Positions 7,820-37,789 of a stretch of DNA of 46,038 nt are shown one piece after another. Within the stretch, counting starts at the first letter, position 1; each line of letters starts with the position of its first letter. This stretch comes from a virus. A program made the position numbers and the translations under genes. The stretch spans positions 1-46,038 of the IMG/VR virus record IMGVR_UViG_3300025890_000004; one strand, given 5' to 3'. The notes below the pieces were generated by a model that saw only the letters and a program-made list of their open reading frames with translations, searched no databases and was not told where the DNA came from.

Positions 7820-10800
7820 ATGGAACCAGAACTCACAGCAGAAGAATACGAAGAAGCAAATGCTCCCGCTATTGGTGAAGAGGATAATGAGAATGCTAAG
7901 GCAGACAGCTACACTGAGTTTGACCCTGCTGTAGGGGCTCTGTACCCAGATATTGAAGACCCAGCTGAAGCTAAGGCTGCCCTTAAGGGTAAGGTTGGTG
8001 GTCGTGTGCAAGAGGAGTTTGACCGTCGATATGATGAAGGCAACCCCCAGACTGCAGAAGAACTTCTGGCTAGTCAGCAAGCGTCCAACCAGATGGCTGA
8101 AGATGTGGACGGTGCAGAGAATATTGACTTCCAGACTGCCCTTGATGCAGAGGACCCTAAGGTTAACCCTAGCAGGTTCCGGTACAACCTGAACAACAGG
8201 ATTGCTCAAGACATTCTTGATACATACAAGGATGAAGAGCAGGGCTGGGGTGGTTGGTTGGCTGACCTAGGTGGCGTCATAGTCTATGACTCTACTGTTG
8301 GCATCAAAGGTAACCTCACAGGTGACGATGAGAAGCAGGGGATGCTAATCCAGTCTAAGATGATCACCATGTCAACAGAGAACTTCAAGACGTGGTTCAA
8401 AGGGTATGCTGATGAAATGGCCAGAGGTCCTAGCGGAGGTATCAACCAGATGTTCCTTAGTGACCTTCAGGGCTTCCTGAACAGCGGCGGTTACGTAGCC
8501 ATTGCTGATGACAACGTATCAAAGTTCTGGGGTGCTGTCGATCTCCTAGGTATTGGGCAGACTGTTACCAAGGCCGGTAAGGTTGTTGTCCAAGGCACCA
8601 AGGCTTCCAGACGTGCAAAGAAGCTACTCAAAAATATTGAGGACAGCCCTACGCCTACACCAGACTCCACTAAGCTGGCAATGTCCAAAGGTTCTGAGAC
8701 GGCAGAGGAAATCCTTGAGGCAAGTGACGACCTCAGTCCAACTAACTTCCAGATGATCTTGGAAGGCAGCTTCGAAGAAGGCAACAACCTGACAGCACGT
8801 CCAGTGGTTAGCATGGGCTCTTCTGAGAGAATAGTAACAGAGAAGACCTTGTTGGACAGGATTACCCGCATCGTTGACTCTGGTGCTGCTGGTCGTGTAG
8901 TTGACGACGCTGCGATCATAAAAGAGGCCGAAAGAGTTGGGAAGGCTGGTGTAAAACAGTTAGTCAAAAATAAGGTCTCAGAGAAGTCTTTTGCTCTGTT
9001 CAAAACTGGTGTACAACGTGTAGGTCCACGTGAGCACTATGTCATGAACCTTTTTGGGCAGTCCAACGGTGCACCGTTCAAAACAGAGAAAGAGGCTGCT
9101 AAAGTCTTTTCAAACGTACTGAAGTCCAACCAGTCTAACGTCAAGGTAATTCCTTTGGACAAGACAGATGCCTCCAAGGGATTTGTTCTTTCTAAGACGG
9201 ACAACCTAAACTTGACAGGTTTGGCTCCTGATCTTGAACGCGCTGCAATTGTTGAAGTTACCCACGGGTTCTGGAACAACCTGTTTCACAAGACAGGTAT
9301 TGCTAACTCAACAGCCCGTGATGTTGGCGGTTGGGCTACAGAGAACCAGTTGGGCGAGGCTTCCATCAATGCCATGAGCGTGCAGAAGAAAGTCTTTGAT
9401 GACGTAATAGGCAAGCTGACTGGTGATGAATTTAAGACCTTCAACACTTACAAGGTAATCGAGCGTGACAGCATTCTACGGGACTGGAAGTCAGCCAATG
9501 ATTTCATAACTGACTACACCAATAAGATGGGTAACCCTCCTACACAAGCACAGGTGGATGCCCATAAGGCAATGACCCAGATGGAGATGACCCAGTGGTA
9601 TCTGCGCTCTACGTCTATGATGCGTGACTTGGTTGCTCATGGATACCAAGGTATCGGTATGAACATGGGTAAGGAAGCTGGCCAATGGCGTACAGCTGGT
9701 AAGAAGGTCAGCGTAACACAGCTACCAGATGACACTCAGATATGGTACAAGAACCAAGAGTACCTGCTCAAAGACATCCCTGATGCTGACAAAGCTAAGA
9801 TGACAGTCTTCAAAACAAAGGACGGCTTCAAGCCACCAAATGATGCAGAAGGACTTTTCTTCCATGTTGCTAACCCAGATGATATTGGGCTGCTCACACC
9901 TAGTGACGCAATGGGCGTTGCTATCTCTGGTCGTGTTGACTATACACACGCTACACATTTTATCGTAGTCGATGGTGTACGTAAGAAGTCTCTGCTGTCT
10001 GCCTCATCAGGTAAGTCAGCTGAAGCGGCTGCCAAACAGTTGGAAGAAGTGCGTAGAGTTGCAGCGTCTGATATGCCTAAGGGTGAGAAGGACGCCTTCA
10101 TTCGTGCGAATAACGATTGGAACACTACCATTAATTCTCTGGATGACTTTGAAAAGTTCTCAGGGAAATACAACTGGAACTTCAAGAAGCACGGGGTTAT
10201 TGGCTCTAAGAAGCGTGATCAGGCTGTTATCGACAGCATAAGTGATGACCCTGTTGAAAACCTCACAGCTGGTCAGATGGCTTCCACAAGTCAGATACGC
10301 GGACAAGAGAGGCTCATGCACGTAGGTGGTCACAAGTCTGAACACCTTGCACCTAGTAACAGTGTATCCATAGGTCTGGACAATGAGATCATGCGTCTGG
10401 CCTTTGAGGCTGGTACAACTAGGTCGATCGAAGGGTGGGTTAAGACTGCCATTCGTGAAGGCTATGGTGAAGCATGGGGCCTAGGCACAGCTGGCGATAA
10501 TATCGTTGACTACAGACGGGCTTTCATGAACGCTAAGGTACGTCCTGAGGACATGGGGCACACAGGTGAAGCTGGTGCATTTGCTTCCCAGATGGAGCAC
10601 ATGCGTAGTGTCATCCATCGTCGCATAGGTACTAAAGGCCCACTGCAGTCTATGTTGGAGATCAATGCCAAACGTCTTCAAGAGACAGTCTTTGACACAA
10701 TGGGTAAACAGGTTAACCTGAGTGACCCTACTAACGTGCTGTTGAAGGTAGGCTTCCAGAGTGCCTTTGGTTTCTTTAACATCTTTCAGGCTCCACTACA

Positions 10801-16823: not shown

Positions 16824-16878
16824 AAAAAAGCCCCCGTGCCGCCAAGGTTAATACCAAGGTAGCACGGGGGCTTTTGTT
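16824..16878. terminator. bidirectional rho-independent terminator between the convergent gene blocks
   Basis: The stem is GCCCCCGTGC (16830-16839) paired with GCACGGGGGC (16862-16871). AAAAAA lies on the left and TTTTGTTT on the right. The loop is 22 nt. Confidence 0.7.
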
Positions 16879-16942: not shown

Positions 16943-17407
16943 TTATGACGCAAAGCCTTCATCAATCGGCCTTTTCACTGAATAATTTTTAGGACACTTT
17001 GGCAAATCAATACGCCACACGACCGGACCGCGCTTACTAATATCCACCTTGTAACAGATGCCCACTTGTCCTAATCGGTCGTCGTATGAATTTTCTTCAG
17101 ACCCACCTGAACCTCCAATTACACCTCCAATTACACCCACAAATCCACCTGAGCCTCCAGATCCACCTGAGCCTCCAGATCCACCTGAGCCTCCAGATCC
17201 ACCTGAGCCTCCAGAGCCGCCTCCATTGCCAGAGCCTCCACCACAGGAGTTGCCTTGGCAATTGTTGCCTTGCCCGTTGTCGCCATTTGCGTCTCCTTGT
17301 CCATTGTCGTCCCCTATTTGACCTGTGTCAGGCCCACTTGCTTGTGAGTACGCAGGTGACGCAATCAATGCGCCAGCCAGAAACAGTGCTGCAGTAAGTT
17401 TAGTCAT
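16943..17407 (-). CDS. secreted glycine-rich, 4-Cys protein
   Basis: Sec-type signal MTKLTAALFLAGALIASPAYS|Q. Then GDANGDNGQGNNCQGNSC, a (GGS)n run and a C-terminal Cys-containing globular part. It is the terminal gene of the leftward block. Confidence 0.6.
   Translation of the reverse strand: MTKLTAALFLAGALIASPAYSQASGPDTGQIGDDNGQGDANGDNGQGNNCQGNSCGGGSGNGGGSGGSGGSGGSGGSGGSGGSGGSGGFVGVIGGVIGGSGGSEENSYDDRLGQVGICYKVDISKRGPVVWRIDLPKCPKNYSVKRPIDEGFAS
17145..17216. repeat. 18-bp x4 perfect tandem repeat (CCACCTGAGCCTCCAGAT) inside the Gly-rich gene
   Basis: Units lie at 17145, 17163, 17181 and 17199, and only the last base of unit 4 differs. The repeat encodes the GSGGSG run on the minus strand. 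Confidence 0.95.
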
Positions 17408-17409
17408 AT

Positions 17410-17694
17410 TTAGTTCTCCTTAGTTTCAAGATATTGACCAAAGGAATATTGGTCATGGTTGACTAGCTCGACAGTTAAGAAATCAACTGTAGCCTCATAG
17501 CCTCCTATGTATTCGCCATTGATAAAGACGGCTGGTACAGTTCTGATATGTTGGCTGTCCAAGAAGCGTCTTAGTTCAGTTGAGCCCTGATGGTCTATTG
17601 AGCACACAGTGGCGATCAAGCCTTGTTCAGCTACAAACGCACGTACCTTAGTGCACGACTCACAGTGAGCCTGAGAGATGATTGTGATGTTCAT
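17410..17694 (-). CDS. glutaredoxin / NrdH-like redoxin
   Basis: CESC active site (CxxC) and TVPAVFINGEYIGGY (glutaredoxin TVP..fI.G..IGG). ATG 17694 has GGAGG 7 nt upstream and overlaps the upstream stop (ATGA). The ORF-track start 17730 is probably too long. Confidence 0.75.
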   Translation of the reverse strand: MNITIISQAHCESCTKVRAFVAEQGLIATVCSIDHQGSTELRRFLDSQHIRTVPAVFINGEYIGGYEATVDFLTVELVNHDQYSFGQYLETKEN

Positions 17695-18371
17695 AGTGCA
17701 CCTCCAGCTTTCAAATGATCTTTCATCCATTCAGCAGATACTCCTGTAGGCAACAGGAACTTTGTCACAGGTGTATCAGGTTTCATGCTGACGAACATCC
17801 TGTCCAAGTCCTCCTTATTTTTGAACACTAGGTAGGTATTCCTTGAAGTTTTGGCCTGTATGAAGTACGCCAGTTGAGTGTTGTACCCCATGCTCATAAT
17901 GTACCAAGTCATGTATCCTCCGATCTGCTGACCATCAGCAAACACTTGGTTCATCGACATCTCCCTGTCATCAGTCCAAGCCCTGTGGAAGGCAAGTACT
18001 CCTTCGACTATCTGACGTTCCCCTCCAAGGAAAGCGAAGGCACATGCACTGACGCACCTGTCGCCCTCCACTACAGCTGCACCCAACTTCAGTTCATTGA
18101 ACAGCTGTCCCAAGAGGATACCCTCAGAGAACAGCCCTCCATTGCTATTCAAGATAACCATAGTGGTCTGGGGGTTGCTGTCCATATACAGCCGCATCTG
18201 CTGGGTCAGACCAGACTTGAACTCCCCCTTGATCAGTACTGCATCGTTGTCGATCTTTGTTATCTCATGGGCCTTGGCTAGAGTAGTGAAGAAAGCAAAT
18301 GCCACAACAACAATCAGTACAACTAGGGCAGTTAGTTTCCACGGCGTTTTTACATCATTAAACATATTCAA
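17691..18371 (-). CDS. membrane-anchored ClpP/SppA-fold protein (COG3904-like), putative
   Basis: N-terminal TM (LTALVVLIVVVAFAFF). VILNSNGGLFSEGILLGQLF and RCVSACAFAFLGG parallel ClpP INSPGG..aG..iyd and G.AASMGa.LLaaG. Confidence 0.45.
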   Translation of the reverse strand: MNMFNDVKTPWKLTALVVLIVVVAFAFFTTLAKAHEITKIDNDAVLIKGEFKSGLTQQMRLYMDSNPQTTMVILNSNGGLFSEGILLGQLFNELKLGAAVVEGDRCVSACAFAFLGGERQIVEGVLAFHRAWTDDREMSMNQVFADGQQIGGYMTWYIMSMGYNTQLAYFIQAKTSRNTYLVFKNKEDLDRMFVSMKPDTPVTKFLLPTGVSAEWMKDHLKAGGAL

Positions 18372-18374
18372 TCC

Positions 18375-20291
18375 TTAGGTTAGGTCTACAATTTCACAGC
18401 TGTCACCAGAACACGCTAGTGTCTGACTTCCTGCTGTAGTGTCTTCGGTTTCGTAAGTGTTCAACAGCCACCAGTCGATTGCTTTGGGCGACAGTCTCTT
18501 CATCTCCACATATTCTTTCCAACTTACCTCTTGATAAGGAGCCTGTTGATATGTGTGTTCGTTGAGTGGCAGGAATGATACCCCTGACATTTCATCGAAG
18601 TGCTCATACACAAAAGCACCCACAGCCATCCATTCATCTTTCTTGACGTTGATGGTCACACTGGGCTTATGCTCACACCAGTGCCTCTGGTACACCAGCC
18701 ACGTCTCCAGCTGGTCGAGAGCAGATACGTCATCATTAGTGACAGCTGACTTAGGTGCTGCCACAGGGAAGCTGAACACTGTTGTCTTCTCTGGGTTGAA
18801 TGCCTCAGGCTCCCAAGGGATACCGGAGTCCTTCATGAACTTAGTCATAGGGTCCATATTGTCCCCACGAACAGTGCGTACATAATACCTAGAATAGCGA
18901 GTGTGGATACCGGATGCAGAGTCAACCAGTTGCGAGACCGTTCCACTAGGCTTAACACAAGTGATTGCAGCAGCCACAGGGATACCAAGACGGCCAGCCC
19001 AATCTTTGTTAGTACTAATAGCGATATCACGAAGATGCGCAAGAGTGCTCTCCAATCCTTTGTTCTTGGTTGTTGTCAGTTTGTTATCCATGATACCTGT
19101 CAGAGACACGCCCAGCAGACGCTCCTCTTCAGTGTTCTTCTGCCATACCTTACGCAAGTACGGGAAGTGTGTGTACGTGGACTGTATGGTCCCTAAGATG
19201 GTTGCCAGACGTACCTTGCGCTCCAAGTCTTCAATGGTATCGGTTGCACGTATGACGACCTCTGTGAGGTTGCAGAACTGGTAAGGACGTAGGATGATCT
19301 CTGAGCAAGGGTTAGTCCCAAAGCTATGGTTAGTATCACGACGACCGTTACGTCCAGCTTGTTTGACCGATGCTTCACGATTGAATATCCCCCTTTCACC
19401 AGAGCCACTCTCCATCAGGTTGAGCCACTCACGCATGAAAGCATTCATGTCAGGCTTGGCTGTATATGCCACACTGTTGTTAGCCAGTGCCCTCTGTGGA
19501 TTGTTGGTCCACCAGTCACCTGACTTAGCTGTTGCCATACGTGTGGAGCTCAAGTTACTCAGGCTGATCATAGCTGACCGGCGTACACCACCGACAACAA
19601 CAATCTCCCCGACCTTACACATGATATCATGACACTCAAGGTCAGTCAGCTTACGTCCAGCAGCACCTTTGAATATCTCAATGGTGAAGTTGAACAGGTC
19701 AACCAAAGGGGCAGGTCCACTAGCACGCCCACCAAAGGTCTTCAGGGGAGCGCCGGCAGGACGAACCTTACTGGTGTCCCACGAAGGGATGTATCCTTCC
19801 CACAGGTCCTGCAGCAGTTGCTTGTAAGCCCTAGCCCAACCTTCTTTGCTGTCTGCAACAACGATCGTACCTGTAGGCTTGAACTCAGCAGGTACAGGTG
19901 GCAGCTTTTCAATCTCATCACGTTCGACACTGAAGCCAACACCAGTCCCACACAACAAGATGAACATAGCCTCATCAAATGACCTTGGGTGGTCAACAGG
20001 AAGATAAGAGCAGTTGTACATGCAGGTGTTGTCACGATTGGCAGCCTTACCAGCAGTCATCAGTGCTCGCATACTGGGCATGATCTCTAGGTTAAGGATG
20101 GCATCGTAAATGGCATACTGAGTTTCGTCGTCCAGTATAGGGCATTTTTCTCCCAGAGGCTTAACTACGTTGTCCATGTAGCGGTCAACAGTCTCAGGTA
20201 AGTTCTCTCGTCGTCCTTTCTCAGGCAGCCATTTGGCATACCTGCTTTTGTGGATGAATGTTTGGTAGTCAGTCGGTAGATGGTTGTTCAT
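18375..20291 (-). CDS. nrdJ: class II (adenosylcobalamin-dependent) ribonucleotide reductase
   Basis: 638 aa single-chain RNR of the type common in marine podoviruses. The N-terminus reads YQTFIHKSRYAKWLPEKGRRE..ETVDRY. An active-site-like NPCSEI is present, and a C-terminal Cys pair lies in ..LACSGDSCEIV. Confidence 0.8.
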   Translation of the reverse strand: MNNHLPTDYQTFIHKSRYAKWLPEKGRRENLPETVDRYMDNVVKPLGEKCPILDDETQYAIYDAILNLEIMPSMRALMTAGKAANRDNTCMYNCSYLPVDHPRSFDEAMFILLCGTGVGFSVERDEIEKLPPVPAEFKPTGTIVVADSKEGWARAYKQLLQDLWEGYIPSWDTSKVRPAGAPLKTFGGRASGPAPLVDLFNFTIEIFKGAAGRKLTDLECHDIMCKVGEIVVVGGVRRSAMISLSNLSSTRMATAKSGDWWTNNPQRALANNSVAYTAKPDMNAFMREWLNLMESGSGERGIFNREASVKQAGRNGRRDTNHSFGTNPCSEIILRPYQFCNLTEVVIRATDTIEDLERKVRLATILGTIQSTYTHFPYLRKVWQKNTEEERLLGVSLTGIMDNKLTTTKNKGLESTLAHLRDIAISTNKDWAGRLGIPVAAAITCVKPSGTVSQLVDSASGIHTRYSRYYVRTVRGDNMDPMTKFMKDSGIPWEPEAFNPEKTTVFSFPVAAPKSAVTNDDVSALDQLETWLVYQRHWCEHKPSVTINVKKDEWMAVGAFVYEHFDEMSGVSFLPLNEHTYQQAPYQEVSWKEYVEMKRLSPKAIDWWLLNTYETEDTTAGSQTLACSGDSCEIVDLT

Positions 20292-20308: not shown

Positions 20309-20354
20309 TTATACGGGTTCGCGTATATAAGTGAATTATACGGGTTCGCGTATA
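20309..20354 (-). promoter_or_regulatory. two copies of a 19-bp dyad-symmetric element (TTATACG-GGTTCG-CGTATA) upstream of nrdJ
   Basis: Exact copies lie at 20309-20327 and 20336-20354 (27-bp period). Read on the minus strand, the copy distal to nrdJ runs into TATAAT and the proximal copy into TATAAG. Confidence 0.5.
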
Positions 20355-20374: not shown

Positions 20375-20971
20375 TTACCTGTAGTCTCCACTTCCACCAA
20401 TCACACCACGCTCCATACGTGACTGCAATTTAGTTAAGTTGCCTCCAGCTGCATCTTCCAAGTCGATATCCAAGTCAGTTGCTAAGGCTGCCAGATACCA
20501 CAGGACATCCCCCAGCTCTTTGGTCAAGCCCTCTGTGTCCAGTTCTGTACCATCGCGGTAGTGCTTCTTGACCTTGTTCAGCACTTCGCCAACCTCGCCG
20601 GCCAGCCCCATTGCAGGGTACATTACCTTCAGGCTGTCAGAGTAGATAGCTGTCTCAGATGCAGCCAGTTGGTATTCCTCAAATGTAGTCATCTTCATAT
20701 CCTTTTTCTTACTTTCTCGTAGTTCACCTACGTGTTGGTTAAAATACTCTCTTTCCTTGGTTTCATCCCAGTGTCCTTCAGACGCTAGGTTTAGGCCATA
20801 TACGTAGTCGTCATAGTCACCAACATCCAAACCTACTGGGAGCAATATGTACAAAGTCCCCTCATCAGGCTTCACTACTTCAATCCACCAGTCTCGCGAG
20901 TCCTGTACTGAAATCTTCACTTCAGGTCTAGGTTCTGCGATCGTTTTTCCCTTATTAGGTCTCTCAGGCAT
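20375..20971 (-). CDS. mazG: MazG-like nucleoside triphosphate pyrophosphohydrolase with 91-aa N-terminal extension
   Basis: The C-terminal half reads FEEYQ..A..TA.Y...LGLAGEVGEV..K.KK..RDG....L..ELGDVLWYLA.LA..L, the MazG EExxE/D pattern. Internal Met92/Met94 lie at 20698/20692. Confidence 0.75.
   Translation of the reverse strand: MPERPNKGKTIAEPRPEVKISVQDSRDWWIEVVKPDEGTLYILLPVGLDVGDYDDYVYGLNLASEGHWDETKEREYFNQHVGELRESKKKDMKMTTFEEYQLAASETAIYSDSLKVMYPAMGLAGEVGEVLNKVKKHYRDGTELDTEGLTKELGDVLWYLAALATDLDIDLEDAAGGNLTKLQSRMERGVIGGSGDYR
20707..20740. repeat. 34-bp exact direct repeat, copy 1 (inside mazG ORF)
   Basis: TCTTACTTTCTCGTAGTTCACCTACGTGTTGGTT is identical to 20974-21007. The offset is 267 bp (89 codons). 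Confidence 0.95.
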
Positions 20972-20973
20972 AC

Positions 20974-21007
20974 TCTTACTTTCTCGTAGTTCACCTACGT
21001 GTTGGTT
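20974..21007. repeat. 34-bp exact direct repeat, copy 2 (dpdA 3' end + stop + mazG leader)
   Basis: Identical to 20707-20740. It contains the dpdA stop codon (TAG, 20995-20997) and the spacer before the mazG ATG at 20971. Confidence 0.95.
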
Positions 21008-21657
21008 GTATTCGTTAATTGTAGTGGTGTTTGAATTAAGTCAATCCTATTAACCATTTCAAGTGCTGTCATTGGGTGCCTAGAGTGGCTTAAGGCTACG
21101 TTGCAACTGTCGGCAGAAGCGAAAGGCCATCGTCTGCCTTTTACCTTGAGACCCCGCATCATGTGAACCCAGTTCCTATTGTTTGTGCGTTCAAGGGCCT
21201 CCCAAGCCTCATCTGCACGTTTTTGCCATTCCGGGGAGTTCACCTTCCAGTATTGGCCGGATGAACCAAAGGCAATCCTTGGATATTCATCCGACAACTC
21301 CAAAAGCCAGTCGATAGGTAAGTCCATGTGCCAAACGGCACAACTCAGGTGACGTGGGTAAGGCCACTGTCTAAGGTAGACAGACTGTTCATCAACATCA
21401 CCCCCGATTACATCAGGAATTACTGCCCAGTTGGCACCAAACAATTTGTCCTCAAGCCAATCGTAATAGCCGTTTGGGTCAAAGGCCTTTCCTTTTGTGT
21501 AAGCAGAGAAGGCTCCGTTGTCCCACATGATCGACTGAGCGTTACCAATTAGCCAATCTACATCCCTTGGGTGGGCATGTGAGACACAGAAGTTCTTTCC
21601 TGCCAGTGTCATTAACTCACTCTTAGGCGTCAGTGGTGTTCCGTGGTAGTGAAGCAT
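20995..21657 (-). CDS. dpdA: DpdA-family DNA-guanine transglycosylase (7-deazaguanine insertion), putative
   Basis: Motifs appear in the order seen in DpdA/TGT: WDNGAFS (cf. DSGGF), WAVIPDVIGG, IAFGSSG, VHMMRGLK and ASADSCNVALS (cf. SADSxAWS). GGAGG lies 7 nt upstream of ATG 21657. It is adjacent to yhhQ. Confidence 0.65.
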   Translation of the reverse strand: MLHYHGTPLTPKSELMTLAGKNFCVSHAHPRDVDWLIGNAQSIMWDNGAFSAYTKGKAFDPNGYYDWLEDKLFGANWAVIPDVIGGDVDEQSVYLRQWPYPRHLSCAVWHMDLPIDWLLELSDEYPRIAFGSSGQYWKVNSPEWQKRADEAWEALERTNNRNWVHMMRGLKVKGRRWPFASADSCNVALSHSRHPMTALEMVNRIDLIQTPLQLTNTTNT

Positions 21658-22168
21658 TTCTAGTCCTCCAAGTTAAGTACACGGCTACAGCCAGTGTTGC
21701 ATACAACTTCCCAAGCACATTACCAGCAGAGAAGTCTAGTGAACCAAATGCAATGTAGACGAATAACATGCTGTCAACGATTGCTCCAGCAACACCAGAC
21801 AACAGCACAGCAATGTTACGGCCACGCTCCCTCAGCCAAGTGTAGACCGTTGTGTCCAGAAGTTCAGACACAAGGAAAGCCACCGCACTTGCCACTGCAA
21901 TGAATGGGTCAGCAAGAAGGAACGACAGCAAACACCCTGCCACAACGGCAACAACAGACCACCGCCAGTTAGTCATCTCTTGTAGCCAATCGCGTAGGAC
22001 CAGCGCAACACCAATCATAAGCACCCCTGACGGAGCCATCAACCCAAAACCCATAGGGATTAGACAAGGGCCGTTGTCAATACAGACCGTACCTACGTTA
22101 CCTATTAACCAGTTGGCCGTAGGTACTGTTAACATAAATGCCACAAAGACGCATAATTTACTAAGCAT
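21623..22168 (-). CDS. yhhQ: YhhQ/VUT-family queuosine-precursor (preQ0) transporter
   Basis: 181 aa polytopic membrane protein. SGVAGAIVDSMLFVYIAFGS matches the YhhQ/DUF165 signature (..vDs.iF..iaF). It overlaps the dpdA start by 35 nt. Confidence 0.65.
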   Translation of the reverse strand: MLSKLCVFVAFMLTVPTANWLIGNVGTVCIDNGPCLIPMGFGLMAPSGVLMIGVALVLRDWLQEMTNWRWSVVAVVAGCLLSFLLADPFIAVASAVAFLVSELLDTTVYTWLRERGRNIAVLLSGVAGAIVDSMLFVYIAFGSLDFSAGNVLGKLYATLAVAVYLTWRTRNASLPRNTTDA

Positions 22169-22952
22169 ATTCTCTCTCCAATGTTTCCATGCTTACCCAC
22201 TGAGGCTCATACAATCCTGAGCCATCGATGTTACGTTTGACTACAACACCCTTCCACCATTCTCCGTTTGACTGGCCAGCCCAACTCTCATCACCGCCTT
22301 TGTAGCAGCCGACGACAGCACCAATAGCATTAGCTTCATCCTTGAAGTACATGCCCCGCTTGTGGCTGTGGCCTACCGTTGCTGATCTATATCGCTTCTG
22401 TACCAATCCGTAAGCATGGTGCACGCCAGATATAGCGCGACCAAAGTTACCAGCGCCAATATAGTGAGCGTAATCCACCCCATCAATATTGGCAATTGCA
22501 GGAGCCCCGTTATGATACCCGTGATACTCATCAAACCACCTATGAGTATTAAGGTGATCAAAGCTGATGCCATAACGAGTGCCGTGGACCCTAGGATCAT
22601 GAGAGATAGCAGTTTTAATTCGCGTCTCATGGTTCCCCTCGAAGCCGATGAACTTGGGTCTACGTTTCTTTGCCTTATTGAACTCATGTCTAAGTCGCTC
22701 CTGTGAGTCATTGTAGATGTTGATATCAGCCTCATAATTTTGGCTGACGATAGCCTCAGGTTTACGTCCATCGTAGGAGTTCAAGGATGCCATGTCAGCA
22801 CCGTCACCTAGGTCAACCACGTAGTCAGGCTTGATGTCGTATAGGAAGCGCCCCAGCCAACTAAATCGTTCGTTGGACACCTCTGGTTTAGCGTGTCCAC
22901 ATGAGAACACGACTGCTGTTTTATTAGTGGACACTGTTAGTACCCTCCTCAT
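22161..22952 (-). CDS. calcineurin-like metallophosphoesterase
   Basis: Motifs CGHA..., DLGDGAD (GDxxD), GNHE and GHSH occur in canonical order. The likely true start is GTG 22934, with GAGGAGG upstream formed by the ATGAGGAGG at 22952. Confidence 0.7.
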   Translation of the reverse strand: MRRVLTVSTNKTAVVFSCGHAKPEVSNERFSWLGRFLYDIKPDYVVDLGDGADMASLNSYDGRKPEAIVSQNYEADINIYNDSQERLRHEFNKAKKRRPKFIGFEGNHETRIKTAISHDPRVHGTRYGISFDHLNTHRWFDEYHGYHNGAPAIANIDGVDYAHYIGAGNFGRAISGVHHAYGLVQKRYRSATVGHSHKRGMYFKDEANAIGAVVGCYKGGDESWAGQSNGEWWKGVVVKRNIDGSGLYEPQWVSMETLEREYA

Positions 22953-37060: not shown

Positions 37061-37789
37061 ATGGCTAAGAGTATCTCAGACTTCATCAAACGTGCAAAGA
37101 AACACATCACATCCCCTAAAGCATCAGGGGCACAGATGCACAGACACAGCAACAGCTCCAACCCTCCCACAGGAGTTAACACTGTAAAAGGTGAATCCCG
37201 TGCACAGTCGGATTACCGTGCTGCTAAGATCAATGCTGCCCGTGAAGCCTACAAGGCACGTAAGGCCGGTAAGACTACTCAGTCTGCACCTGCACCCGGG
37301 GCATCAACTCAGCCACGATCGCCCTCCAGTAAGGCAACTGCAAAGTTCCCTGCACCTAAGAACTACCCACGTACTACTCCTGAAGAAGGTGGCGGCTTGG
37401 CTCCTCCAGTTAAACGGAAGCATTCACCTAAGCCAGATAATGTCTACGGTAAGAAGAGTGGTCCACAGGCCAAGAAGCCTGATAATGTTTATGGTAAGAA
37501 GAGTGCTGCACCTAGTCCTAAAAGTAGCAGCATGACTCTCCGTGAGTCCTTTGCTAAACAGAACAAAGGTAACAAACGCTACGGGCCAGCAGCTGGTCAG
37601 GCTGGGAACAGACCTGCAGCTCAGCAGGGGGGAGCACCTTCGCACGCAGAGAACGCTAAGCTAGCACGTAAGGTCAAGTCACGTAAGAACCCACGTAGCC
37701 GTATCACATCAGGTAAGGCATCCACAGCACAAGCTGCAGGGAAAGCTCTTTCCACACGCCGTAAAAACAAGAAACCGGGTCAACGCTAA
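37061..37789 (+). CDS. highly basic low-complexity (Lys/Pro/Ser/Ala-rich) protein
   Basis: RBS is taGGAGGccatcATG. 242 aa with an internal duplication KPDNVYGKKS x2 and no predicted globular core. It is the first gene of the rightward block. Confidence 0.6.
   Translation: MAKSISDFIKRAKKHITSPKASGAQMHRHSNSSNPPTGVNTVKGESRAQSDYRAAKINAAREAYKARKAGKTTQSAPAPGASTQPRSPSSKATAKFPAPKNYPRTTPEEGGGLAPPVKRKHSPKPDNVYGKKSGPQAKKPDNVYGKKSAAPSPKSSSMTLRESFAKQNKGNKRYGPAAGQAGNRPAAQQGGAPSHAENAKLARKVKSRKNPRSRITSGKASTAQAAGKALSTRRKNKKPGQR

Follow-up and report, generated by a model that had tools for sequence, protein, structure and literature searches.

A candidate two-gene, salvage-type 7-deazaguanine DNA-modification cassette in the genome of a cobavirus-like marine roseophage

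Results

Two overlapping genes encode a short DpdA-like protein and a VUT/YhhQ-type membrane protein

The window analyzed here is the complete 46,038-nucleotide (nt) stretch of the IMG/VR virus record IMGVR_UViG_3300025890_000004, and the element in question is a pair of overlapping open reading frames (ORFs) on its minus strand. The ORF at 20995-21657 encodes a short DpdA-family protein of 220 amino acids (aa), and the ORF at 21623-22168 encodes a polytopic membrane protein of 181 aa assigned to the VUT/QPTR family (YhhQ, COG1738). By their coordinates, the 3′ end of the VUT gene and the start of dpdA share 35 nt. A previous sequence-only reading had described this pair as a minimal 7-deazaguanine DNA-modification module in a closed genome. 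The positions, strand and overlap of both ORFs are as claimed, and the first 99 nt of the record are identical to its last 99 nt, indicating a circularly closed assembly. The identical ends may be an overlap left by the assembler and not a physical terminal repeat.

All five motifs that had been quoted as DpdA/TGT-like are present in the 220-aa protein in the claimed order: WDNGAFS (aa 45-51), WAVIPD (77-82), FGSSG (130-134), HMMRGLK (165-171) and ASADS (180-184). Residues D46, D82, H110, S132, H165, R168, D183 and S184 do not vary among 35 homologues with 52-85% identity to the window protein. Codons for the predicted catalytic and substrate residues are located on the minus strand at 21520-21522 (D46), 21412-21414 (D82), 21328-21330 (H110), 21262-21264 (S132), 21163-21165 (H165) and 21106-21111 (D183/S184).

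The 220-aa protein matches phrog_887 (E = 2.2e-38, profile positions 11-213), the same family that is matched by the validated DpdA of phage CAjan (8e-96, positions 10-283). An hhalign comparison of A3, the window family, with A4, the CAjan family (90.6% probability, E = 1.3e-6, 137 columns), pairs residues that are invariant on both sides (D46 with D63, D82 with D105, H110 with H132, H165 with H187, and D183S184 with D206S207). The corresponding motif pairs are WD46NGAFS and LD63SGAFS, IPD82 and LD105, VWH110 and CFH132, FGS132 and IGG, VH165 and LH187, and FASAD183S and YSCD206S. Because these residues are invariant among the 35 homologues and align to invariant residues of the CAjan family, the quoted motifs are not chance strings. 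An exhaustive representative search yielded 1,267 family members (194 at E ≤ 1e-30). CAjan DpdA, used as a single sequence, directly matches many of them (1e-15 to 1e-6); P0366, for example, bridges the two groups, with matches to the A3 profile (8e-35) and to CAjan DpdA (2e-15). There is therefore a sequence continuum between the window family and CAjan DpdA. When the window family was aligned with the DpdA of Salmonella phage 7-11, hhalign gave 99.7% probability (E = 9e-26) at 31% identity. On the basis of these alignments, we assign the 220-aa protein to the phage DpdA family, in its short class.

The relationship to TGT is less direct. No Pfam or NCBIfam model matched the 220-aa protein, and the TGT family PF01702, proposed earlier as a check of the assignment, gave no match even at E ≤ 10 for the window protein or the 35 family members. 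The validated CAjan DpdA likewise has no Pfam match, and we set PF01702 aside as an uninformative membership test. PDB sequence searches returned nothing for the window protein, for the 35-sequence profile or for CAjan DpdA used as a single sequence. Taken alone, the Pfam and PDB negatives would place the protein outside the TGT/DpdA superfamily, an outcome that the sequence-only reading had named as speaking against it, yet they have no discriminating power because CAjan DpdA behaves alike. An AF2 model of the 220-aa protein (pLDDT 84, pTM 0.81) has alternating beta and alpha elements. Foldseek searches of this model against the PDB gave nothing at E ≤ 1e-3; the best matches were generic TIM barrels (E ~0.06-0.1), and no TGT was among the top 50. 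In BFVD, the best fold matches outside the protein's own family are to phage models labeled 'queuine tRNA-ribosyltransferase' (E 1.6e-4 to 3e-3, TMq ~0.4-0.5). Comparison by hhalign with the single E. coli Tgt sequence gave less than 2% for both the window family and the validated DpdA1, a test without power, in which both place (W/L)D(N/S)GAFS on Tgt TDSGGFQ. The link of the 220-aa protein to TGT is an indirect one, a chain that runs through phage DpdA and the literature.

The PADLOC model of bacterial DpdA did not match the window protein and matched CAjan DpdA weakly (1.3e-3). Among the 63 ORFs submitted to the Pfam scan (all selected ORFs of at least about 50 aa in the closed genome), there were no DpdB- or DpdC-like families. 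A bacterial Dpd restriction-modification system was rejected on these two grounds. No match to PF20314 (DUF6610) was found in the Pfam scans, which speaks against a DpdA4.

The overlapping upstream ORF had been read as a YhhQ/VUT-type protein, with the motif GAIVDSMLFVYIAFG, which we locate at aa 128-142. Its score against Pfam PF02592 (Vut_1) is 43.6 bits, above the gathering score of 27.2, in agreement with that reading. The family phrog_4899 is common to the window VUT (8.8e-36), E. coli YhhQ (2.4e-37) and CAjan YhhQ (1.1e-47), and a tblastn search with CAjan YhhQ recovers the window VUT (E = 1e-11). The protein contains at least four hydrophobic 19-residue segments. BLASTP against E. coli YhhQ aligns just 65 aa (35% identity), and the PRK11212 cut-off is missed (27.6 vs 252 bits). 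From its family profiles, we place the 181-aa protein in the Vut_1/QPTR (YhhQ) family and predict that it imports a 7-deazaguanine base: preQ0, preQ1 or possibly queuine. E. coli YhhQ carries preQ0 and preQ1 (PMC5372724, PMC11130926), and a Chlamydia QPTR protein carries queuine (PMC11130926).

The closed genome has no recognizable preQ0 synthesis genes

Complete phage preQ0/G+ clusters of the Queuovirinae type encode FolE, QueD, QueE and QueC (or Gat-QueC, QueF, ArcS), and none of these was found in the window. The Pfam scan of the 63 ORFs revealed no QueC, PTPS/QueD, Radical_SAM/QueE, GTP_cyclohydroI or QueF at E ≤ 0.01. Six-frame tblastn searches with CAjan FolE, QueD, QueE and QueC were negative apart from one marginal QueC match (37130-37300, E = 0.002), which was rejected as noise: it lies in a stop-broken frame antisense to a low-complexity basic ORF. 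The earlier claim that the closed genome lacks FolE/QueD/QueE/QueC-like ORFs is thus upheld by both searches.

DpdA and VUT are paired across unrelated phage backbones

The 85 viral loci compared are the window, the loci of isolates Pam5 and RHph_N3_2, two contigs from metagenomes and the top 80 relatives from IMG/VR (48-65% identity). A same-strand VUT gene is next to the DpdA-like gene in 78 of the 85. Four of the seven exceptions end at a contig edge beside dpdA, leaving the pair in 78 of 81 informative loci. Among the 78 pairs, VUT is located upstream (n = 51) or downstream (n = 27) of dpdA, and the two genes are adjacent or overlapping (n = 56) or separated by one small ORF (n = 22). Backbones that carry the pair include NrdJ-bearing cobavirus-like podoviruses, an Agrobacterium sipho-type contig, the cyanophage Pam5 and RHph_N3_2, a temperate Rhizobium phage. 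DpdA and VUT together form the functional unit, and this unit is mobile. No DpdA-VUT fusion was found among 149 representatives, and the long family members have no transmembrane (TM) segments except P0351, which has a single hydrophobic stretch at its N-terminus. We also examined a separate and more divergent group of 66 loci from bacterial genomes (66 species, mostly Rhizobiales and Solirubrobacterales), of which only 33 have an adjacent VUT.

The closest isolate homologues are encoded by Pam5 (Pseudanabaena) and RHph_N3_2 (Rhizobium), whose DpdA proteins belong to the same short clade (45% and 44% identity, respectively) and have a VUT gene beside them. As in the window, neither complete genome contains QueC or QueE. 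They differ from the window in gene order (dpdA precedes VUT, and in Pam5 a spacer ORF separates the two) and in having temperate-type backbones unrelated to cobaviruses. Both pairs are annotated just as 'transglycosylase'/'VUT family' or 'hypothetical'/'DUF165'.

The short-DpdA clade is tied to preQ0 chemistry

One related locus (L083) carries an overlapping queD-queE-queC-dpdA operon at 8331-10687, with a DpdA of the same short clade and the cassette directly upstream of dpdA (Pfam: PTPS 3e-18, Radical_SAM 1.4e-8, QueC 1.7e-44). Neither VUT nor FolE was found within 10 kb. From its gene content, this locus looks like a 'make' counterpart of the 'import' layout in the window. Its QueD was overlooked by a two-reference phmmer screen and caught by Pfam, so the absence of QueD and FolE from the other related loci is weakly supported.

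In 15 viral loci (L004, L009, L013, L015, L017, L042, L045-L047, L057, L061, L064, L067, L069 and L087) a QueF-L-like spacer ORF lies between VUT and dpdA; five bacterial loci (L103, L141, L142, L164 and L166) also have it. Members of this family are ~80-96 aa long, and Cys-Pro, Glu and His are invariant among them. The family profile matches the archaeosine synthase QueF-Like (PDB 5jyx/5k0p) at E = 1.9e-5 over near its full length, Cys-Pro included. Relatives with this ORF probably convert preQ0 onward, to preQ1 or G+, judging by that match.

QueD adjoins dpdA in three bacterial loci, and in P0264 (335 aa) a QueD domain (residues 10-127) is fused to a short DpdA domain (136-331). In P0280 (181 aa), a QueF-L-like N-terminus is joined to a partial DpdA domain; this protein may be a fragment or a frameshift product. 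The queD-queE-queC replacement, the QueF-L-like ORF and the QueD fusion therefore tie the short-DpdA clade to preQ0 chemistry. None of these extra genes (QueF-L-like ORF, queD-queE-queC or QueD fusion) is present in the window.

Two additional families of small ORFs were observed between dpdA and VUT. One, of ~126-142 aa (YLCGPINGC...GTSME; L040, L050, L051 and L071), is weakly similar over near its full length to DNPH1/Rcl (2′-deoxynucleoside 5′-phosphate N-hydrolase) and to nucleoside 2-deoxyribosyltransferases (E ~0.03, not significant alone); its members might free a base from a precursor nucleoside or nucleotide. The other, of ~81-102 aa (...EPRFIIERADG...AQHRYA), is present at 8678-8938 of the Pam5 locus L001 (Pam5_29), at 10689-10934 of L007, and in L041.

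The pair is embedded in a leftward block of nucleotide-metabolism genes in a cobavirus-like genome

The terminase large subunit (TerL) of the window shares 81% identity with its counterpart in Roseobacter phage CRP-4 and 66-74% with those of CRP-5, Lentibacter phages ICBM1-3, Celeribacter phage P12053L and SIO1. On these identities, the window is therefore a cobavirus-like phage (Zobellviridae, Cobavirinae), and its host is likely, from the same relatives, to be among the marine Rhodobacteraceae. The tblastn matches to DpdA name no phage of Roseobacter, Lentibacter or Celeribacter. An identical DpdA protein with identical gene order is present in several marine metagenomes.

Upstream of VUT, and sharing 8 nt with its start, lies a gene for a calcineurin-like metallophosphoesterase of 263 aa (22161-22952, minus strand; phrog_221, E = 7.8e-24). 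Downstream of dpdA on the same strand, we found genes for a MazG-type nucleotide pyrophosphohydrolase of 198 aa (20375-20971; PF03819, 6.5e-11) and an adenosylcobalamin-dependent ribonucleotide reductase of the NrdJ/RTPR type (18375-20291; TIGR02505, 1.7e-92; phrog_367, 7.5e-182). These are followed by an ORF of 226 aa with an N-terminal TM-like segment and no Pfam match (17691-18371), and by a glutaredoxin gene (17410-17730; PF00462, 2.1e-8), all encoded on the minus strand. The position of the 226-aa ORF, between the reductase and glutaredoxin genes, is kept in contigs of the identical phage, where it is called as 224 aa. From metallophosphoesterase to glutaredoxin, the genes run in one direction with overlaps or with gaps of at most 83 nt.

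The final gene of this leftward block is an ORF of 154 aa (16943-17407, minus strand) whose product has a hydrophobic, signal-like segment at its N-terminus and long repeats rich in Gly/Ser/Asn (GGSG, many times); a terminator-like hairpin follows it at 16832-16847. Promoter-like and terminator-like matches in the block are no more frequent than expected by chance. No Rfam families (including preQ1 or B12 riboswitches) were found in the block, and a tRNA search found none.

The operon proposed by the sequence-only reading (metallophosphoesterase-yhhQ-dpdA-mazG-nrdJ) has the correct gene order, but the unit is the pair, and mazG and nrdJ are part of the backbone. CRP-4 shares with the window the block of endonuclease, MazG, RTPR and glutaredoxin genes, and homologues of DpdA, VUT and the phosphoesterase were not found in it. 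MazG, NrdJ and the phosphoesterase are nearby in 12-18 of the 85 viral loci, all of the window's lineage. MazG, NrdJ and glutaredoxin were rejected as module parts on these two grounds. The metallophosphoesterase, near DpdA in 13 of the 85 loci (all of the related podovirus lineage), is a neighbor that was possibly co-acquired, and its membership in the module is uncertain.

A 34-nt exact direct repeat occurs at 20707-20740 and 20974-21007, with the copies 267 nt apart. The copy at 20974-21007 covers the dpdA stop codon and the gap to the annotated mazG ATG (20971), and the copy at 20707-20740 is just upstream of internal Met92/Met94 in the 198-aa MazG ORF. MazG is only ~110-118 aa in relatives, vs 198 aa in the window. 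The first ~91 MazG codons, bounded by the repeat, look like an in-frame insertion or duplication, and the true MazG start may be at Met92/94. A partly palindromic 19-nt unit, TTATACGGGTTCGCGTATA, occurs twice (20309-20327 and 20336-20354, 27 nt apart) within the 83-nt intergenic gap between mazG and nrdJ. The unit has no Rfam match; it may serve as a site of regulation or processing ahead of the reductase gene.

Discussion

Relationship to known DpdA systems

Hutinet et al. 2019 listed 76 phages with DpdA but no preQ0 or G+ genes (PMC6884629), and their Supplementary Data 1 gives CDKM15, eHP-6 and phiLM21 as three phages in which an adjacent DpdA and YhhQ pair is all that is listed. The salvage-type layout noticed in the sequence is therefore real, and its interpretation is supported, but it is not new, as it is already in that catalogue (PMC6884629). 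In phiLM21 (Sinorhizobium), CDKM15 (Clostridium) and eHP-6 (environmental halophage), as in the window, the DpdA and YhhQ pair accounts for all of the 7-deazaguanine genes. The window, a lytic-type podovirus that is cobavirus-like, differs from these three in virus type, as they are either temperate siphoviruses or of unrelated types. A genome-wide search of phiLM21 found neither QueC nor QueE. Its pair (L092, 14209-15560) combines a VUT of the same phage clade as that of the window (phmmer 8e-47) with a DpdA of 274 aa from another subfamily, which has no detectable similarity to the window DpdA family by hhalign (1.6%). One transporter clade has therefore been joined to different DpdA subfamilies.

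The cluster of Escherichia phage CAjan and of 9g combines DpdA1 with FolE-QueD-QueE-QueC, and with YhhQ in CAjan, and yields dPreQ0 or dG+ at ~25% of G. CAjan has the same DpdA PHROG, catalytic motif set and VUT PHROG as the window; it differs in its 306-aa DpdA with a C-terminal region, its own preQ0 synthesis and its dispensable YhhQ (PMC7544227). The DpdA of 7-11 is closer to the window protein in being of the short class (234 vs 220 aa) and in keeping DNGAFS, PDVIGG, VWH, H-x-x-R and FASADS. Like the window, 7-11 has no preQ0 genes; unlike the window, it has no annotated transporter beside dpdA (it is listed without YhhQ), and its backbone and host are different. Pseudomonas phage iggy contains all four preQ0 genes (PMC10484667). 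The 2023 study that added DpdA3 and DpdA4 does not mention YhhQ. What is new here is the pair in a cobavirus-like roseophage, the near-constant DpdA-VUT pairing in the short-DpdA clade, and the QueDEC, QueF-L-like and QueD substitutions in relatives.

A proposed salvage route to modified phage DNA

We propose that the two genes form a salvage-type cassette for 7-deazaguanine modification of DNA, carried by a marine, cobavirus-like roseophage whose genome is complete, and we give this reading a probability of roughly 0.6. It is favored by the family assignments, the conserved residues, the DpdA-VUT pairing, the lack of synthesis genes and the preQ0 enzymes of relatives, and it has a precedent in E. 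coli, where a phage DpdA by itself places host preQ0 in DNA (PMC6884629). The transport substrate, catalytic roles, DNA target, modification level and biological effect set out in this proposal are predictions. VUT made during infection would import a free 7-deazaguanine base, most likely preQ0 and possibly preQ1 or queuine, which would supplement or replace host-made preQ0. The short DpdA would swap guanines for the imported base in replicated duplex phage DNA by a TGT-type double displacement, with D183 (FASADS) as the proposed nucleophile on C1′, and D46 (WDNG) and D82 (IPD) as the proposed general acid/base and base-recognition residues. Some fraction of the G positions would then carry dPreQ0 or a derivative, for example dADG, conferring protection against restriction. 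As the window has no extra genes, dPreQ0 is the simplest predicted product if the imported base is preQ0. By analogy with the nearest tested relative, the level of modification could be very low, unless the transporter alters it.

Several observations weigh against this reading. A direct link to TGT is missing, as there is no Pfam TGT, PDB sequence or PDB fold match. The window protein has no counterpart of the last ~90 aa of DpdA1 (approximately residues 215-306 in CAjan): the A3-A4 alignment stops at CAjan residue 209, and the window protein continues for 36 residues beyond S184. The 7-11 protein, which the literature treats as a DpdA, has the same short form without the C-terminal region. 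VUT misses the cut-off of the NCBIfam equivalog TIGR00697 (32.4 vs 50.95 bits), and substrate preference varies within the QPTR family and is not predictable from sequence (PMC11130926). Coupling to VUT is strong in the window clade but not family-wide, so the transporter is not obligatory. Among tested phages, the closest relative, 7-11, carries dADG at only ~0.02% of its G, and no modification was seen in Orion, a phage with DpdA alone (PMC6884629). Deletion of yhhQ in CAjan did not lower modification, though CAjan makes its own preQ0 (PMC7544227).

Alternative readings of the pair

The CAjan deletion mutant, equal to the wild type, suggests that DpdA could work in the window on preQ0 from the host queuosine pathway, with VUT an accessory or redundant gene. 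Phage 9g DpdA alone does insert host-derived preQ0 in E. coli plasmid DNA (PMC6884629), and an adjacent VUT is missing from half of the bacterial-genome members as well as from the viral loci L039 and L077. The level reached by 9g DpdA with host-only preQ0 was, at the same time, at most 0.3% of G. In the window clade, the pair is kept in nearly all informative loci on unrelated backbones and in both gene orders. In the one locus where VUT is clearly replaced (L083), a synthesis cassette takes its place, a sign that precursor supply limits this enzyme. We consider reliance on host preQ0, with little contribution from VUT, unlikely. A more skeptical reading is that the cassette gives trace or no modification, being a weakly selected accessory pair or one with an unrelated role and having no practical anti-restriction effect. 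The 7-11 and Orion results are what it would predict, and the shortened C-terminus could lower DNA binding. Against it, 7-11 is not a fair proxy, since it has no transporter; moreover, the active-site residues are strictly conserved among the homologues, the identical protein and gene order are kept in many marine metagenomes, and the pair has spread repeatedly between unrelated phages. Conservation of the active site, recurrence in metagenomes and repeated spread therefore indicate selection for function, and we consider this skeptical reading decidedly improbable.

The pair might also act on RNA, salvaging queuosine precursors so as to alter tRNA modification and translation, with the DpdA-like protein modifying tRNA or another RNA. 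The established role of QPTR/YhhQ is the salvage of Q precursors for tRNA (PMC5372724, PMC11130926), DpdA is a paralogue of TGT, and Hutinet et al. 2019 proposed that phages with preQ0 genes but no DpdA may boost Q in tRNA (PMC6884629). All tested phage DpdA proteins act on DNA, however (9g and CAjan genetically, 7-11 by DNA analysis), and the window protein groups with phage DpdA rather than TGT. At 220 aa, it is a minimal domain that lacks any additional RNA-binding module, and hosts already have TGT. Of all the readings weighed, action on RNA seems to us the least likely. Salvage of an imported base for DNA modification remains our preferred reading.

Implications for roseophages and for DNA modification in phages

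If the pair is active, a phage of ~46 kb would gain 7-deazaguanine protection with two genes (~1.2 kb) rather than with a cluster of at least five, its precursor supply being outsourced. As a wider and more tentative idea, about which we remain doubtful, the short (~220 aa) DpdA clade and its dedicated phage VUT clade could together represent a distinct 'import-or-make' form of DNA hypermodification, in which the importer is required and sets the chemistry and level of modification, and the epigenetic protection of an abundant lineage of marine roseophages hangs on the preQ0, preQ1 or queuine dissolved in seawater. To our knowledge, salvage- and environment-dependent DNA modification has not yet been demonstrated for any phage. 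The pair provides a compact two-gene system for asking whether a phage QPTR-type transporter can feed DpdA. Among the sequences examined, it is also the first hint that cobavirus-like roseophages, which are marine and globally distributed, may modify their DNA; such modification, if true, would affect restriction- and sequencing-based studies of these phages.

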